Source: Parcubacteria group bacterium
GTDB lineage: Bacteria; Patescibacteriota; Minisyncoccia; Moranbacterales; UBA2206
Assembly (NCBI GenBank): GCA_041645535.1
Contig: JBAZPT010000002.1
Coordinates: 170,853-234,852, forward strand
Direction: 5' to 3'
Length of the DNA: 64,000 nucleotides
Shown here one piece after another: positions 6,723-38,174 of the stretch. The position numbers and the translations under genes are program-made. Position 1 is the first letter of the stretch; the number at the start of each line of letters is the position of its first letter. The notes under the pieces are model-generated. The model did no database searches. It was given only the letters and a program-made list of their open reading frames with translations, and had not been told where the DNA came from.

Positions 6723-8015
6723 ATGTACAATGATACAATTATAGTAAAAAGGGCTGTGTTTTCAAAACTGGTGGAACATTTGGATGCGAAAGAGGCTACG
6801 GTCTTGCTGGGTCCACGACAAGTGGGGAAAACAACACTGATGAAAGCATTGCAAAAGCATCTAATTGAGGTTAAGAAAATTGTGGAAAGCAATATCTTTT
6901 TCTTTAACTTGGATATTTTGGGCGACCAGGAAATGTTTGAGTCGCAGGAAAAATTTATTACTTTTTTGCGCGAACGGAGTAAAAATGATTTTATCTATGT
7001 ATTTATCGATGAAGCACAGAAAATAACAGAGGCAGGAGTTTTTATCAAAGGAGTTTATGACATGAATCTCCCTCTCAAGCTTGTCCTTTCCGGTTCATCA
7101 TCGCTCGAAATAAAAAACAAACTCGGCGAACCATTGACCGGCAGAAAAAAAGTATTTACTATTTTGCCGTTTTCCTTCACAGAATTTTTGGATTATAAAG
7201 AGGAAGGTTTTCAAAAAAACATTATGAAAGCCGACCTCGCCACGGCGGATGAAAAATATAAAATAAACAGCTACCTGAATGAGTATCTTGTTTATGGAGG
7301 CTATCCCCGAGTGGTAACGGAAAAAAATGAATCGCGGAAAAAAGAACTATTGGAAGAAATATATTCAAGCTACATCGAAAAAGACATTGCCGGATTTTTG
7401 AAAATAAAAGAACCCCTGGCTTTTTCAAATCTGATCAAGCTTTTGGCGATCCAAAATGGCCAGCTTTGCAATGTTAGCAATATTTCCAAGGCGCTTAATT
7501 TAAACCAGCGGACAGTGGAAAAGTATCTTTTTTATCTGGAGCAGACCTTTGTCGTAAAAAAATTGCCGCCATTTTTTTCCAATGCCAAAAAAGAGCTGGT
7601 TAAAATGCCCAAGGTTTATTTTTTTGACACCGGCCTGCGCAATTTGCTGGCTTCCGATTTTTTGGAGTTGGAAAAAAGAAAAGATCGGGGCGGACTGCTG
7701 GAAAATTTTGCTTATAATGAAATGGCGAAAAATCTGGGAGTGGCGGATAGAATAAATTTTTGGAGGAACAAATCAGGAGCTGAAGTTGATTTTGTAGTCA
7801 GAAAAGGAGCCGAGATAGTGCCTTTTGAAATAAAGACCAAAATTAGCGAGCCGAAAATTGAGGCGAGTTTAAAAACTTTTTTGGAACTTTATACAATCAA
7901 AATGGCATATATATTATTTGGAGAAGGAAAGAGCGGGAGATATAAAAAAATGGGTGCTAACATAAGCTTTATGCCGATTTATAAAGTTACCGATAAAAAA
8001 ATCCTAACAAGCTAA
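6723..8015 (+). CDS. AAA+ ATPase, COG1373/DUF4143-type
   Basis: 430 aa. Walker A GPRQVGKTT and Walker B FIDEAQ. The C-terminal region resembles DUF4143. Paralog of 18221-19357. Confidence 0.7.
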   Translation: MYNDTIIVKRAVFSKLVEHLDAKEATVLLGPRQVGKTTLMKALQKHLIEVKKIVESNIFFFNLDILGDQEMFESQEKFITFLRERSKNDFIYVFIDEAQKITEAGVFIKGVYDMNLPLKLVLSGSSSLEIKNKLGEPLTGRKKVFTILPFSFTEFLDYKEEGFQKNIMKADLATADEKYKINSYLNEYLVYGGYPRVVTEKNESRKKELLEEIYSSYIEKDIAGFLKIKEPLAFSNLIKLLAIQNGQLCNVSNISKALNLNQRTVEKYLFYLEQTFVVKKLPPFFSNAKKELVKMPKVYFFDTGLRNLLASDFLELEKRKDRGGLLENFAYNEMAKNLGVADRINFWRNKSGAEVDFVVRKGAEIVPFEIKTKISEPKIEASLKTFLELYTIKMAYILFGEGKSGRYKKMGANISFMPIYKVTDKKILTS

Positions 8016-10145: not shown

Positions 10146-11135
10146 ATGTTTTATGTTCCATGTTTCATGATAATTTTTCTCTGCGGTGAAGATTTTTTCC
10201 GTTCGGGCGAAAAAGTAGCCGAAATAAAAAAGAAGTTTTTAGAAAAAGATCCAATCGGCTCTGGTTTGTCCGTTTTTGATTTTTCCGATTCCAAAATAGA
10301 AACAGACAGCGTTTTAGGGGCGCTTTCAACAAGCAATCTGCTGGCTCCTAAGCGGCTGGTAATCATAAAAAACATAATTTCAGAAGGAACAGAGCGCGCG
10401 CGGGAGGATATGCTCATGTTTTTGAAAAAACAAAAGTGGTTCGCGGAAGATCAGGACACAGTGGCGGTTTTTTGGGAAGCGGGCAAGGTGAAAAAAAGCG
10501 ACTTGCTTCACAAATATTTTCTCAAAAATGCGAAAAACCAGGAGTTTGAAAAACTGATTGGAGCCAAATTGAGCCAGTGGGTGCTTTTGCGGATCAAAAA
10601 AATTGATGAAAAAAATTCCATTTCCCTCACAGCTCTCGAAAAATTGCTGGCTTTTGCCGGAGAGGACATGCATCTTTTGAATAACGAAATTGAAAAACTC
10701 TCGGCTTATGCCGGCGGGAAAACAATAACAGAAGAAGATGTGGAACTTTTAGTGCGCGCCAATCTGGGCAGCAACATTTTCAACACCATTGACGCCATTG
10801 GGGCCAATAACAAAAAAGAAGCACTGGCGCTTTTGCACCGGCACCTGGAAAAAGGCGAAGACCCGTTCTATCTTCTCTCGATGTTTGTTTATCAATTCAG
10901 AAATCTTCTCAAAGTTGCGGATTTCAAAAATCAATTTGGAGCGGATGAATATGCGATTTCCCGCGAAAGCAAAATGCACCCGTTTGTGGTAAAAAAAAGT
11001 TTGGCGCAAATCCGCAATTTTTCTTTTGATAAATTAAAAAATATTTATCAAAAACTTGGGGAATTGGACACAGCAGTCAAAACTGGGAAGGTTGAAATTA
11101 AGATGGGGTTGGATAAGTTTATAGTAGAACTCTAG
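10146..11135 (+). CDS. holA: DNA polymerase III delta subunit
   Basis: 329 aa with delta-like layout (FLCGEDFF..., C-terminal helical domain). Alternative start ATG 10167. Confidence 0.65.
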   Translation: MFYVPCFMIIFLCGEDFFRSGEKVAEIKKKFLEKDPIGSGLSVFDFSDSKIETDSVLGALSTSNLLAPKRLVIIKNIISEGTERAREDMLMFLKKQKWFAEDQDTVAVFWEAGKVKKSDLLHKYFLKNAKNQEFEKLIGAKLSQWVLLRIKKIDEKNSISLTALEKLLAFAGEDMHLLNNEIEKLSAYAGGKTITEEDVELLVRANLGSNIFNTIDAIGANNKKEALALLHRHLEKGEDPFYLLSMFVYQFRNLLKVADFKNQFGADEYAISRESKMHPFVVKKSLAQIRNFSFDKLKNIYQKLGELDTAVKTGKVEIKMGLDKFIVEL

Positions 11136-26648: not shown

Positions 26649-26735
26649 GGAGGCGTCGCATAGTGGCCTATTGCGCATGCTTGGAAAGCATGTTTGTCTG
26701 AAAGGGCATCGTGAGTTCGACTCTCACCGCCTCCG
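26649..26735 (+). tRNA. tRNA-Ser (anticodon GGA), class II with long variable arm
   Basis: Hand-folded. Acceptor GGAGGCG/CGCCTCC, anticodon stem CATGC/GCATG with loop TTGGAAA, T arm GTGAG-TTCGACT-CTCAC, discriminator G. CCA is not encoded. Confidence 0.85.
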
Positions 26736-26745
26736 CTAACTCAAA

Positions 26746-28748: not shown

Positions 28749-28869
28749 ACCCCGCACTAACTTATTACATTCGTAGAGTTTTTAGGGTAACTGCGGGTAA
28801 ATATAATTAATTTGTTTATTTTTACAATAATTCAATATACTGAATTATTGTAAAAAGTTAGTGCGGGGT
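28749..28869. repeat. inverted-repeat element A1 (arms ACCCCGCACTAACTT / AAGTTAGTGCGGGGT, 91-nt loop)
   Basis: 15-bp perfect arms at 28749-28763 and 28855-28869. The loop holds TTGTTT-18-TATACT and the nested palindrome 28823-28852. The dnaG GTG (28868) lies in the right arm. Confidence 0.9.
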
Positions 28870-30655
28870 GAATTCGGACATTGAAGAGATAAAATCCAGG
28901 CTTAATATTGTTGATGTTCTGGGGACTTACATCCGTCTTGAAAAGGCAGGCGCGAATTGGAGGGCGCTCTGTCCTTTTCATAATGAGAAGAGCCCGTCTT
29001 TTATGGTGAGCGAAGAGCGCCAGCGCTATCATTGTTTTGGGTGCCAAAAAGATGGCGATATTTTCAGTTTTGTGATGGAAATGGAGGGGCTGGAATTTAA
29101 AGACGCGCTGAATAATTTGGCGGAAAAAGCCGGAGTGGAACTCAAAAAAATGAATCCAAAACTGGCGGCCGAAAAAAACAAGACCTTGGAAATCTTGGAA
29201 CTGGCGGCTAAATTTTATGAAACCCAGCTGTGGAAAGGCGAGGGCAAGGAAAAAATAATCAAATATTTATACGACCGCGGGTTGAAAGATGAAGCGCTAA
29301 AAGAATTTCGTTTAGGCTACGCGCCCAAAGGCTGGAGAAATTTACTCCAATTTTTAGAAAAGCGCGGATACAAAACTGAAGAAATAAATAAAACCGGGCT
29401 TTTAGTAAAAAAAGAAAATAATAGTTATTATGACCGATTCCGCGACCGGATTATTTTCCCTATCGCGGATGTGAATGGAAAAGTCGTGGGTTATTCCGCG
29501 CGAGTGGCTCCGGGTGGCGATGAGTCGCAAGCCAAATATGTAAATACGCCGGAAACGGAAGTTTACCATAAAAGCAAAATTCTTTATGGAATCAACACGG
29601 CCAGGCAGGAAATGCGCCAAAAAGATTTTGTACTTTTGGTTGAGGGCAACACGGATGTCATCGCGGCCTGGCAGGCGGGACTCAAAAATACGGTGGCGGT
29701 TTCCGGCACGGCGCTGACTTCCGAGCAGGTGGGGATCATTAAAAGGTATACGGACAAAGTCAAGATGCTTTTTGATATGGACAGCGCCGGAGAAAACGCG
29801 ACGAAAAAAAGCATCAAAATTTGTTTTGAAAAAGAAATGGAAGTGAAAATTGTGACGCTTCCCGAAAGCAAGGACGCGGCCGAGCTGGCCCAGAAAGATC
29901 CGGAAAAACTCAAAACGGCGGTAAAAAAAGCAATAGGCGCGATGGAATATTTTTTTGAAAAGACATTCTCCCGCTATGACAAAAACAAAGTAGCGGATAA
30001 GAAAATTATTGCCGAAGAGCTTTTGGCGCAAATTAGCAATCTGGCCAGTGAAATTGAGAAGAGGCACTGGCTGAAAAAATTGGCCGCGGATTTGGAAATT
30101 GACGAAGCTGTGTTGACTGATATGCTCAAAAAAGCTACGCTTAGTGAAAGATTGGGCCGGCAGGCTCCGAGTGCCGAGATTCAGGAACCGTTTAATCCGA
30201 AAAAGAAGATGGAAACGCTTCTCAGGGATCTGGCCGGGCTGGCGCTGGTCTATGGGGATGTTTGGAAGAAAGTTTCTGGAGAAGAGGCATTGAAACCTTT
30301 TTTTCTAAAAGATAGCCTTCTGAGCGCGATTATAAAAAAGGGCAAAGAGGCGGAGTATAACTTCGACCGTTTTATAAAGGTTCTGGATAACCAGGAGCTA
30401 GCTGGTGATTTTGAAAAAATATATTTTGAAAAAAAATACCGGCTGGATCTGAATAATAATCTGGAAGAAGTTATTGCTGATGATCCCCTGGTAGAGGCGG
30501 AAAATATCCTGAAAGAAATAAAAAAGGAAATCAAGAAAGAGGAACTGGAAAAAATTACGCGGGATTTGAAAATCGCGGAAAAAAACAAAGATAAAGAAGC
30601 CATCCAATTCTTGCGTCTGGAAGTTAAAAAAATATCGGAAGAGATGACGGATTAG
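28868..30655 (+). CDS. dnaG: DNA primase
   Basis: 595 aa with zinc finger CPFHNEKSPSF...CFGC and a TOPRIM domain (LVEGNTDVIA). Confidence 0.9.
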   Translation: MNSDIEEIKSRLNIVDVLGTYIRLEKAGANWRALCPFHNEKSPSFMVSEERQRYHCFGCQKDGDIFSFVMEMEGLEFKDALNNLAEKAGVELKKMNPKLAAEKNKTLEILELAAKFYETQLWKGEGKEKIIKYLYDRGLKDEALKEFRLGYAPKGWRNLLQFLEKRGYKTEEINKTGLLVKKENNSYYDRFRDRIIFPIADVNGKVVGYSARVAPGGDESQAKYVNTPETEVYHKSKILYGINTARQEMRQKDFVLLVEGNTDVIAAWQAGLKNTVAVSGTALTSEQVGIIKRYTDKVKMLFDMDSAGENATKKSIKICFEKEMEVKIVTLPESKDAAELAQKDPEKLKTAVKKAIGAMEYFFEKTFSRYDKNKVADKKIIAEELLAQISNLASEIEKRHWLKKLAADLEIDEAVLTDMLKKATLSERLGRQAPSAEIQEPFNPKKKMETLLRDLAGLALVYGDVWKKVSGEEALKPFFLKDSLLSAIIKKGKEAEYNFDRFIKVLDNQELAGDFEKIYFEKKYRLDLNNNLEEVIADDPLVEAENILKEIKKEIKKEELEKITRDLKIAEKNKDKEAIQFLRLEVKKISEEMTD

Positions 30656-30701: not shown

Positions 30702-30813
30702 CCCAGCACCAATTCCGATAGGGTTTTCTGCAAGCGTATAGTTTTGTCAGCGAATACGCCTGCGGCTTAGTTTAAAATATAATAATCAAATTAAAATAGC
30801 GAATTGGTGCGGG
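30702..30813. repeat. inverted-repeat element E (CCCaGCACCAATTC / GAATTGGTGCGGG, 85-nt loop) in the dnaG-rpoD spacer
   Basis: 13-bp arms with a one-base bulge. The arm sequence is intermediate between the A and D families. Confidence 0.65.
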
Positions 30814-30854
30814 ATGCTCATTTTTGTATCCACTCGCACAGCTCGCGGACAAAA

Positions 30855-32150
30855 ATGGCAAAAAAACGCCCTAAAAAACTCAAGCATAAACCCAAAAAGA
30901 CTGTAAAGAAAAAAAAGAGGCTGATGCGGCCGAAAATGAAAAAGAAAGTAAAGAAAGTAAAGAAAATTAAAACGCGCAAAAAGATCAGAAAACCGGCCAA
31001 AAAAGCCAGGCGGGCGCGCAAGGTTGCCAAAACAGCAGAGGAAAAAAGCAGAGGCAAGGACTTTGTCGGCGATTTGATCGTGCGCGGAAAACAGCGGGGT
31101 TTCATTACCGAAGATGAAATTTTACACGCCATTCCCAACGCGGAGCAGAATATTGAAGAGCTGGAAAGCCTGTATGAGCGGCTGGAAGAAATGGGCGTGC
31201 GGGTTATGGGATCAGACGAAATGCTTAAAATGGAAACAGACAAGCTTTCCGAAGATCTGGAGGATGAGAAAAAATCATCCAAGAAAAAGAAAAAGGAAAT
31301 GATGGATGTTCCGGACGACGCTTCATCGGACCTAGTGCAGATGTATCTGCGGGAAATCGGACGAGTGGATCTTTTAAAATCAGAAGAGGAAATCTCATTG
31401 GCTAAAAGAATTGAAAAAGGCGATCCGATGGCCAAGCAAAAACTCACCGAAGCCAACTTGCGGTTGGTGGTAAGTATCGCCAAAAAATATGTCGGGCGCT
31501 CGCACAATTTGTCGCTTCTGGATTTAATCCAGGAAGGCAACATCGGCCTCTTTCGCGCGGTGGAAAAATTTGATTATCGAAAAGGCTATAAATTTTCAAC
31601 TTATGCTACCTGGTGGATCCGCCAGGCAATTACGAGAGCCTTGGCTGACCAGTCGCGCACAATCCGCATTCCGGTGCATATGGTGGAAACAATCAATAAA
31701 TACACGCAAATCACCCGCAGACTCGTGCAGGATCTCGGGCGTGAACCGTTGCCGGAAGAAATCGCGGTGGAAATGGGACTGGAAGTTGACAAAATCCGCC
31801 ATATCCAAAAAATTTCACAGGAAACTGTGTCTCTGGAAACATCGGTGGGCGACAGCGAAGACGACAGCGTGCTGGGCGATTTCATCGAAGACACGGAAAC
31901 GATTATGCCGAATCAATCGGCTTCCCGCAAGCTCTTGAAAGATCATATCGTGGAAGTTTTAGATTCGCTGACTCCGCGCGAACAGAAAATTTTGAAAATC
32001 CGGTTTGGCCTAGAAGATGGCGTGATTCATACTCTTGAAGAAGTCGGGCAGGAGTTCGGCGTGACGCGCGAGCGCATCCGGCAGATTGAAGCCAAGGCGC
32101 TCGAAAAAATCCGCGACCACGCGTCCATTAAAAAACTACGGGATTATTAA
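30855..32150 (+). CDS. rpoD: RNA polymerase sigma factor RpoD (sigma-70) with lysine-rich N-terminal extension
   Basis: Regions 1.2-4.2 are present ([47 protein letters not shown]). ATG 30855 was preferred over the track start 30804. Confidence 0.9.
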
Positions 32151-32155
32151 ACTTG

Positions 32156-32237
32156 ACCCCGCACTAACTTTAGCCATTAAAAGTATGTCTGCAAAATATT
32201 ATCCAATTATTATTGTTGAGCAAAGTTAGTGCGGGGT
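32156..32237. repeat. inverted-repeat element A2 (arms ACCCCGCACTAACTTT / AAAGTTAGTGCGGGGT, 50-nt loop), probable rpoD terminator
   Basis: 16-bp perfect arms, same sequence as A1. Followed by TTGATTTTTTT. Confidence 0.9.
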
Positions 32238-32292
32238 TGATTTTTTTAATAAGGAGAGTATAATAAACCCTGTTTGAAAATTTAATATTTAT

Positions 32293-32576
32293 TCCGGCGT
32301 AGCTCAATGGTAGAGCAGTTGACTGTGAGATAAGCGCAGCTCTTCTTGGAAACTTGAAGATGAACTTTTCGGGATAACGGTGAAGGCTAAGTTCGCCTCG
32401 GCGAATAAGCTAATACCGTGGGAACCTCTCATGCTGAGGGGGCACCGTAGAGACTAGATACCGAAATACCTTAATCAAATTTATTTGAAAAGGTAAAGAT
32501 ATAGTCCACCCCTTTTGGAAACATTAGGATAAGTGTAATCAATTGGTTATAGGTTCGAATCCTATCGCCGGAGCCA
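32293..32576 (+). tRNA. tRNA-Asn (anticodon GUU) interrupted by a group I intron
   Basis: Exons 32293-32326 and 32536-32576 join into a perfect cloverleaf. Acceptor TCCGGCG/CGCCGGA, loop CTGT|TAA, T arm ATAGG-TTCGAAT-CCTAT, G73, CCA encoded. U1-A72 plus G73 are as in E. coli tRNA-Asn. Confidence 0.75.
32327..32535 (+). ncRNA. group I intron (209 nt, no ORF) in the anticodon loop
   Basis: The 5' exon ends in U and the intron ends in G. P1 is CUGU/GCAG (32336-32339) with U-G at the splice site. P7-like strands are AGACUA (32451-32456) and AUAGUC (32501-32506), in contexts resembling the Tetrahymena and Azoarcus cores. Confidence 0.8.
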
Positions 32577-32646
32577 ACAAAAATAACCCTTATTTACGGG
32601 GTTATTTTTTATACCCGAGTAGGACAGTAGAACTTGTGGTATAATT
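32570..32646 (+). repeat. direct repeat copy 1 (tRNA 3' end + terminator + TGgTATAAT promoter)
   Basis: 77 bp, matching 33172-33248 with about 4 mismatches. Confidence 0.85.
32583..32610 (+). terminator. rho-independent terminator after tRNA-Asn
   Basis: ATAACCC-ttatttac-GGGGTTAT followed by TTTTTT. Confidence 0.7.
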
Positions 32647-37202: not shown

Positions 37203-38174
37203 ATGGGAAATATTTTTTCAGGATTGGGCCAGAATTATCAAGCGGCGGCTATTTTAGCGCTTTTGATTTTAGCCGGCTATATTTTTTTCAAAAAAAAATC
37301 GCCATTTAACCGTTCAACTTCCATTCCGATTCTGGAAAGTTTTTCCAAGGATGTCACCCGGCTGGCGAAAGAGGGAAAGCTGGATCCGGTGATCGGCAGG
37401 GAGGAAGAAATCAAACATTTGATTATGGTTTTAAGCCGGCGGACAAAAAACAATGTGGTTCTGGTCGGAGAAGCGGGTGTGGGAAAAACCGCCATAGTCG
37501 AAGGGCTGGCGCAAAAAATAGCCGACAAAAAAGTTCCACCGGAGCTTTTTGCAAAAAGAGTGCTGCTCCTCGACCTCAATTCTCTTTTGGCCGGAACCAA
37601 ATATCGCGGTGAATTTGAAGATCGGGTGAAAAAAATAACTGAAGAAATTTCCCTTTCCAGCCGCAACATTATTCTTTTTATCGATGAAGTGCATAATTTG
37701 ATTGAGGCGGAAAGCTCCGGGGAGTCAATTTCAGTCGGGGATATTTTCAAGCCGGCCATGGCCAGGGGGGACTTGCAAATCGTGGGCGCGACTACTCGCC
37801 GGGAATACGATGAATATTTTGAAAAAGACGATGCTTTTAAGAGAAGAATGCAGCCGATCTTTGTCAGCGAGCCCAGCGCGGAAGAGGCGCTGGAGATTCT
37901 CAGGGGAATAAAAAAGAAATACGCGGATTTTCACAAAGTGGAAATCACGGACGAGGCGCTCGGGGCCTGCGTCATAGAGTCAAAGAAAGTGTTTCCGGGG
38001 AAATCATTGCCGGATCGGGCGATTGATCTGATGGATGAAGCGGCCAGCAAGGTAAGAATGGAAAATGCTAAAAACTCCTCCGAAAGTGAAATTCCGAAAG
38101 TGTTAGTCAAAGATGTTATGGAGGTGGAAGAGGAGTATAAGAACGAACAGCCCAGGGTTGCGCGCACGCAATAA
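37203..38174 (+). CDS. membrane-anchored single-domain Clp/Hsp100-type AAA+ ATPase (NBD1 only)
   Basis: 323 aa with an N-terminal TM helix, then LDPVIGREEEI, GEAGVGKTAIVEGLAQ, Walker B LFIDEVH, sensor TT..EY. No N-domain, M-domain or NBD2. Confidence 0.7.
   Translation: MGNIFSGLGQNYQAAAILALLILAGYIFFKKKSPFNRSTSIPILESFSKDVTRLAKEGKLDPVIGREEEIKHLIMVLSRRTKNNVVLVGEAGVGKTAIVEGLAQKIADKKVPPELFAKRVLLLDLNSLLAGTKYRGEFEDRVKKITEEISLSSRNIILFIDEVHNLIEAESSGESISVGDIFKPAMARGDLQIVGATTRREYDEYFEKDDAFKRRMQPIFVSEPSAEEALEILRGIKKKYADFHKVEITDEALGACVIESKKVFPGKSLPDRAIDLMDEAASKVRMENAKNSSESEIPKVLVKDVMEVEEEYKNEQPRVARTQ

Follow-up and report, generated by a model that had tools for sequence, protein, structure and literature searches.

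The tRNA-Asn(GUU) gene at positions 32293-32576 (plus strand) of the window, by which we mean the whole 64-kb stretch of DNA analysed here, is interrupted within its anticodon by a 209-nt insert at the junction of U35 and U36. The insert matches the Rfam group I intron model (Intron_gpI, RF00028) from 32317 to 32528 with 56.7 bits and an E value of 1e-11, covering model positions 1-253 of 253. Its helices are supported by covariation among related introns and the positions of both splice sites are fixed by the same data. We are therefore highly confident that this is a group I ribozyme within the tRNA-Asn(GUU) gene of an uncultured, ultra-small member of the Patescibacteria (CPR), located downstream of dnaG and rpoD and probably equipped with its own promoter and terminator.

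The interrupted gene and its group I fold

The original prediction had joined exons 32293-32326 and 32536-32576 into a cloverleaf with the anticodon loop CUGU|UAA. Both the coordinates and the fold are confirmed by the sequence and by ARAGORN, which reads the 75 nt of joined exons as a regular cloverleaf of tRNA-Asn(GUU); in default mode the same program reports no tRNA at the unspliced locus. The 3′ exon starts with UAA, its discriminator G73 is G32573, and the CCA end is encoded at 32574-32576. The insert had been described as following a U and ending in G, and it lies exactly there, with a G at both ends (G32327 after U32326, and G32535). The motifs to which the prediction drew attention, GCAG at 32336-32339, AGACUA at 32451-32456 and GAUAUAGUC at 32498-32506, are likewise present.

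A search with cmsearch and the Rfam group I model had been named as a check on the prediction, and it returned the match given above, which is over the RF00028 gathering score of 50 bits, although by only 6.7 bits. Since the match is full-length and is the sole one within the 64 kb, the insert is more than a chance resemblance. The model alignment pairs exon CUGU with GCAG, and the conserved splice-site U of the model falls on U32326, opposite G32336. Besides the RF00028 score, the intron has a P1 helix with a U-G wobble, an omega G positioned by P9.0 and the core helices P3-P8. A group I intron at position 35/36 of tRNA-Asn(GUU), with GCAG as its guide and the wobble at the splice site, is what had been proposed, and it is now supported by the covariance model, by comparative data and by synteny.

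The comparative data derive from a 108-sequence alignment which, among the matches listed, contains several intron subfamilies at one site. Within it the window intron falls into a subfamily of 19 members characterised by GGGAUAACGGUGAA, AAUACCGUGGGAAC and CCGUAGAGACUAGAUACC, again among the matches listed. RNAalifold applied to this subfamily recovered the anticodon stem, P1, P2, P3, P4, P5, P6 and P8; P7, which forms a pseudoknot with P3, and P9.0 were added by hand before pairs were counted. In total, 96.9% of the cells were paired, compared with 35-39% when partners were slid by 1-3 columns. Compensatory changes occur in 28/51 pairs, and none of 500 shuffles reached any of the observed measures. 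Because P7 (GACUA with UAGUC) is invariant, it is neutral in this test. The anticodon stem (32318-32322 with 32539-43) has compensatory changes in 5/5 pairs among the listed members of the subfamily. The elements of the gene are given below, with pair counts from the subfamily.

32293-32326, plus strand: 5′ exon of tRNA-Asn(GUU), comprising the 5′ strand of the acceptor, the D arm, the 5′ strand of the anticodon stem and C32, U33, G34, U35
32323-32339, plus strand: P1, formed by CUGU (32323-32326) and G32327 with the internal guide (C)GCAG (C32335-G32339); the 5′ splice site is at the U32326-G32336 wobble; 100% paired
32327-32535, plus strand: group I intron of 209 nt without an ORF (RF00028, 56.7 bits, E 1e-11)
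32342-32359, plus strand: P2 hairpin with a GAAA tetraloop (32349-32352); compensatory changes in 6/6 stem pairs
32367-32372, plus strand: 5′ strand of P3, UUUCGG, pairing with 32461-32466; 100% paired, compensatory changes in 4/6 pairs
32377-32419, plus strand: P4-P5 domain, with P4 formed by 32377-32382 and 32414-32419 (99% paired) and P5 by 32386-32387 and 32409-32410 (100% paired, one compensatory change)
32392-32405, plus strand: terminal P5a hairpin within the P4-P5 domain
32421-32446, plus strand: P6 hairpin; 94.7% paired, compensatory changes at one pair
32452-32456, plus strand: 5′ strand of P7, GACUA, inside the conserved block AGAGACUA, pairing with 32502-32506; invariant in 19/19 members
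32461-32466, plus strand: 3′ strand of P3, CCGAAA, making the P3/P7 pseudoknot together with P7
32467-32495, plus strand: P8 hairpin; compensatory changes in 7/8 pairs
32498-32506, plus strand: J8/7 (GAUA) and 3′ strand of P7 (UAGUC), placed by the RF00028 alignment, the family alignment and the pair counts
32508-32534, plus strand: P9.0, made of the pairs A32508-U32534 and C32509-G32533, around the P9 hairpin (32511-32528), which has a GAAA tetraloop
32535, plus strand: terminal guanosine (omega G), the last nucleotide of the intron, with G before UAA in 111/111 family genes parsed
32536-32576, plus strand: 3′ exon, comprising U36, A37, A38, the 3′ strand of the anticodon stem, the variable loop, the T arm, the 3′ strand of the acceptor, G73 and CCA

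P7 is the seat of the guanosine-binding site of group I introns. Around it, AGAGACTA is invariant across the 108-sequence alignment, a figure to be read with the caveat that AGACTA was part of the search pattern. Moreover, the CUAAG...UAAG motif of the P4-P5 domain resembles a tetraloop receptor and may act as one.

Splice sites and isotype in a family of interrupted tRNA-Asn genes

Metagenome contigs were scanned with the pattern D-arm - N6 - CUGU - N4-11 - GCAG - N95-125 - AGACUA, which yielded at least 120 loci with an intron-bearing tRNA-Asn pattern. The majority of the matches (111/123) could be parsed as complete interrupted genes. Of the remaining 12, most are truncated at contig ends, and the three matches that carry inserts (L085, L110 and L127) are also among them. 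Every one of the 111 parsed genes, among the matches listed, splices to tRNA-Asn(GUU) at the same site as the window gene. Their introns are 177-278 nt long and range from 36 to 75% GC, again among the matches listed; because intron GC reaches 75%, some of the hosts are probably not CPR.

Both splice sites are marked by helices that covary within this set. At the 5′ end, a pair between the first intron nucleotide (+1) and the guide nucleotide that precedes GCAG is formed in 107/111 genes (CG 55, GC 29, AU 14, UA 2, GU or UG 7), extending P1 across the splice site. At the 3′ end, the first P9.0 pair, between the first nucleotide after the 3′ strand of P7 and position -1 from the terminal G, is present in 105/111 genes. 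The second, between the next nucleotide and position -2, is present in 106/111 and occurs as all four Watson-Crick types (CG 57, AU 26, GC 11, UA 8) as well as UG (4). The terminal G lies outside the search pattern and stands directly before the UAA of the 3′ exon without exception, and in about 102/111 genes P9 is capped by a GNRA tetraloop. Covariation of P1 and P9.0 therefore identifies U32326 as the reactive U and G32535 as the terminal G.

Moving both splice sites upstream by 2 nt, to follow U33 (32324) and G32533, would instead produce the loop CUUGUAA and hence tRNA-Thr(UGU), termed 'Thr.2Ug' in the Williams nomenclature. ARAGORN run with introns gives precisely this name to the window gene, tRNA-Thr(tgt) i(33,209), and calls several other family members Thr too. 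The two alternative junctions likewise follow U and G, and the core of the 'Thr.2Ug' seed Pgr210 is, among the preprint seeds compared, one of the two closest to that of the window. However, in P1 the pair U32324-A32338 is Watson-Crick and the U-G wobble sits at U32326 instead. The alternative further requires the intron to end in GUG, which only 61/111 parsed genes do, as against 111/111 with G before UAA. Moreover, the G at -2 behaves as a variable, covarying partner in P9.0, with the pair types listed above, and not as a conserved terminal G. U1-A72 and G73 are each found in 110/111 parsed genes, and in the window gene, and we take these to fit E. coli tRNA-Asn and not tRNA-Thr. When the tRNA body was compared with the anticodon loop excluded, the best intronless tRNA-Asn scored 0.76 (mean 0.68) and the best tRNA-Thr 0.65. 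An intronless tRNA-Asn gene stands after rpoD in relatives, and an intronless tRNA-Asn with identical exons exists on a contig from a sediment metatranscriptome (X10). We therefore consider splicing to tRNA-Thr(UGU) extremely improbable, and this identity was rejected on the position of the P1 wobble, P9.0 covariation, the terminal G, the tRNA body and synteny. The original prediction had dismissed tRNA-Thr(UGU) as well; it was right to do so, and the evidence is now stronger.

The prediction had also proposed ARAGORN with its intron option as a means of confirming tRNA-Asn, and here the outcome went against it, the program calling tRNA-Thr(UGU). Within this one class ARAGORN reports Thr(tgt) with an intron at 33/34, Asn(gtt) at 35 or Asp(gtc) at 37/38, depending on the gene (seen in the window, L082, L084, L103, L140, L149, L150, L151 and L194). 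Because the isotype names are inconsistent within the class, ARAGORN was not used to choose the splice site. For annotation, this means that standard finders miss the present tRNA-Asn, with ARAGORN giving nothing without the intron option and tRNA-Thr with it. As a consequence, uncultured CPR genomes can seem to lack an essential tRNA or be assigned the wrong isotype. Moreover, introns of the window's subfamily score near or below the RF00028 threshold, and the curated model misses part of them. The 111-gene set offers a simple annotation rule for the class, in which the covarying P1 and P9.0 fix both splice sites.

Relation to known tRNA introns

The classical bacterial tRNA hosts of group I introns are Leu(UAA), fMet, Ile(CAU) and Arg(CCU), a list from which the tRNA-Asn class is missing and which the literature mostly repeats or extends with cases other than tRNA-Asn. 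A passing remark in a CPR genome paper states that CPR tRNAs often carry group I introns. The four bacterial tRNA classes were expanded to 21 with tFind (K. P. Williams, bioRxiv 2020, 10.1101/2020.01.27.920355), and its seed Pam37.Asn.4Ug denotes an intron that follows loop nucleotide 4 of tRNA-Asn, exactly the site seen here. Our literature search found no tRNA-Asn intron described except in this preprint. The original prediction, which knew of no intron in tRNA-Asn between positions 35 and 36, needs correction on this point: 'Asn.4Ug' had already been named there, and at least 120 metagenome contigs carry such a gene. The class is known and common in metagenomes, and the window holds an ordinary member of it.

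The following comparisons refer to seeds of the preprint. Pam37 and the window intron share the host tRNA, the site (CUGU/...g/UAA), a wobble-paired U at -1 and a terminal G. However, the core of the window intron is of another lineage, with an alignment score of 134 to Pam37 versus 224 to the Tyr.4Ug seed, and Pam37 has two elements that the window lacks, an additional stem-loop separating P1 from P3 and an insert that follows the 5′ strand of P7. The closest seeds are Mba143.Tyr.4Ug and Pgr210.Thr.2Ug, scoring 224 and 222, compared with at most 136 for the other seven seeds compared. GGGAUAACGGUGAA, AAUACCGUGGGAAC and CCGUAGAGACUAGAUACC are common to these two and the window, as are the pairing of CUGU with GCAG in P1, the size class and the GNRA loops on P2 and P9. 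They differ in their hosts, Mba143 and Pgr210 being annotated in tRNA-Tyr(GUA) and tRNA-Thr, respectively, and the window intron residing in tRNA-Asn. In the preprint's own seed alignment the 'Thr.2Ug' seed places its U-G wobble at loop position 4, and therefore its assignment may share the Asn/Thr ambiguity described above.

A lineage with the GCAG guide, reading CUGU, may move among tRNAs with G34-U35 (Asn, Tyr, Asp and His), presumably by reverse splicing, with at least two unrelated lineages having come to occupy position 35/36 of tRNA-Asn. We regard this as a possibility with somewhat less than even chances. If true, the published 'Thr.2Ug' class would have been assigned wrongly and would belong with the introns that read CUGU, and the decoding of AAY codons would depend on this ribozyme in those CPR that have a single tRNA-Asn gene.

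The window intron was also compared with classical IC3 introns, namely those of Azoarcus tRNA-Ile(CAU) (Ile2.5Ug), cyanobacterial and plastid tRNA-Leu(UAA) (Leu.3Ug), tRNA-fMet (fMet.2Ug) and Agrobacterium tRNA-Arg(CCU) (Arg.5Ug). Like these, it is in the size range of about 200-250 nt, lacks an ORF, lies in the anticodon loop and is built of P1-P9 with P2 present, no P5abc and GAAA capping both P2 and P9. They share the conserved blocks AGAGACUA (J6/7-P7) and AUAGUC (J8/7-P7), and in both the anticodon stem probably joins the exons. The insertion sites differ, being 35/36 in the window, 34/35 in Leu, 33/34 in fMet and 36/37 in Ile and Arg. At the J3/4-P4 and P6-P7 junctions the window has GGGAUAACGGUG and CCGUGGGAAC, whereas classical IC3 introns have GUCAAAUUCGGGGAA and CCGAGCCAAG. 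The window intron aligns poorly with the preprint's Azoarcus and Leu seeds (scores of 114 and 133), and the CPR host is unlike those of classical IC3 introns. Of the peripheral features of subgroup IC3, in which the GNRA loops of P2 and P9 dock with receptors within P8 and P5, the window intron shows P2 and P9 capped by GAAA and a short P5 carrying CUAAG...UAAG; its J3/4 and P6-P7 junctions differ in sequence from the IC3 seeds.

Host, neighbourhood and activity

The best match to the RpoD protein encoded upstream of the tRNA gene comes from a Candidatus Moraniibacteriota MAG (79% identity), followed by other Patescibacteria, which places the host within the CPR. The features flanking the tRNA gene are as follows.

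28868-30655: dnaG, neighbouring gene
30804-32150: rpoD, neighbouring gene, with the tRNA-Asn gene just downstream
32237-32264, plus strand: promoter-like site TTGATT-16 nt-TATAAT from a consensus scan, matching 10/12 hexamer positions; candidate promoter
32579-32609, plus strand: terminator-like hairpin with a T run, directly downstream of the tRNA (RNAfold, -12 kcal/mol); candidate terminator

An intronless tRNA-Asn(GUU) gene directly follows rpoD in four related loci (L003, L006, L018 and L062). In a fifth, from another Patescibacteria MAG (L045), an intron scoring 107 bits with a 9-bp P1 splits the gene that follows rpoD at the identical position, CUGU|...G|UAAC. The promoter-like site, if used, would give a leader of roughly 20 nt. 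The hairpin at 32579-32609 was not flagged by the consensus scan. Between rpoD and the tRNA promoter there is a long, near-perfect inverted repeat (32152-32240, -34.5 kcal/mol) with arms of some 20 nt and a T run after it, which is probably the terminator of rpoD. A pattern of tRNA-Asn D-arm and anticodon loop was also seen within about 1 kb after rpoD in eight further loci (L020, L021, L022, L024, L041, L069, L075 and L080) from Clostridia, Desulfotomaculaceae, Pelosinus, Thermoleophilia and Collinsella, with two copies in the Collinsella loci and the isotype predicted from the pattern. The arrangement of rpoD and tRNA-Asn thus appears to be widespread beyond CPR.

The splicing that we propose for the transcript is the standard group I pathway. 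The precursor would fold to form P1 between exon CUGU and the guide GCAG, and a free exogenous guanosine bound in P7 would attack the bond after U32326, held in its U-G wobble. P9.0 would then bring the terminal G32535 into the same site, and the freed 3′-OH of U35 would attack after G32535, joining the exons as a CUGUUAA loop and releasing the intron. No evident P10 pairing of the guide with the beginning of the 3′ exon was found, and it is probably the anticodon stem that holds the exons together. Both catalysis and use of the promoter are predictions from sequence. The gene may be the only tRNA-Asn gene of the cell, which would make splicing essential, an expectation drawn from a window that represents 64 kb of the genome.

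A different reading is that the ribozyme is dead, or its protein helper absent, and that the locus is a decaying tRNA pseudogene while another gene supplies tRNA-Asn. The Rfam score near the threshold would fit this, as would the two U-U mismatches in P2 and two in P9 of the window copy and the fact that RNA runs matching the locus contain relatives only. Yet the window intron matches 83/83 columns that are at least 90% conserved among its 18 nearest relatives, and because it departs from none of them there is no sign of decay. Its exons do not differ from those of a bona fide intronless tRNA-Asn, the gene lies between a promoter-like site and a terminator-like hairpin, and another family member (L106) has the same P9 sequence, mismatches included. 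The low Rfam score is a trait of the subfamily rather than of decay. A MAG labelled Saccharibacteria (L013:6078-6456, gene on the minus strand) carries a 195-nt intron of the same subfamily in tRNA-Asn, which has the same conserved core but scores below the gathering score, so that RF00028 leaves it unreported at that threshold. This intron was the only useful yield of a loose regular-expression scan for group I cores in the collected loci, the output of which was mostly noise. We therefore judge a decaying locus to be quite unlikely and retain the reading of an intact group I intron.

Only two metatranscriptomes among the RNA runs share words with the locus, and their contigs are either intronless relatives with other flanks or an unspliced relative. 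The X10 contig mentioned above contains both exons without any difference, joined exactly at 32326|32536; because its flanks differ, it represents the intronless tRNA-Asn gene of another organism and not a spliced product. Similarly, DNA contigs from X1 and X2, the landfill or groundwater metagenomes that contain the window, pass from 32326 straight into TAATCAAT and derive from similar intronless tRNA-Asn genes.

Several further observations concern the window and the collected loci. A tRNA-Ser(GGA) gene at 26649-26736 is the sole tRNA found by default tools in the 64-kb window, and in L013 the same tRNA-Ser(GGA) lies about 2 kb upstream of the rpoD match, on the opposite strand. A 323-aa ORF at 37203-38174 encodes a single AAA module plus an AAA_lid_9 domain, shorter than expected of a Clp/Hsp100-type ATPase, and may represent a gene that has been truncated or split. 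On one metagenome contig (L119), about 2.7 kb separates two interrupted tRNA-Asn(GUU) genes (7431-7681, plus strand, and 10391-10656, minus strand), whose introns of 179 and 194 nt are related but not identical.

Among the unparsed matches, the intron in L110 (minus strand, downstream of the match at 469-621) harbours a GIY-YIG nuclease domain (PF01541, E 4e-19) in an ORF of 104 aa or more, inserted after the 5′ strand of P7 on a contig that ends before the 3′ exon; the ORF likely encodes a homing endonuclease. In L127 (minus strand, around position 1492 of the reverse complement) the tRNA-Asn 5′ exon and the start of an intron are followed by an opposite-strand gene for a 535-aa large serine recombinase with Resolvase, Recombinase and Zn_ribbon_recom domains, and no credible 3′ exon was found within 1.6 kb. 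This arrangement may reflect an integrative element within the gene or a misassembly. In L085 (minus strand) one of the ORFs downstream of the match at 2401-2539 encodes a 358-aa protein that bears a YLDD motif like that of reverse transcriptases, and no 3′ exon was found after the pattern match. Lastly, introns of 69-75% GC occupy the same tRNA-Asn site in L125:2229-2579, L134:8218-8551 and L185:995-1340, which the search matched in soil and rhizosphere metagenomes only. Such GC contents are unlike those of CPR genomes, and therefore the tRNA-Asn intron class probably extends to other phyla.
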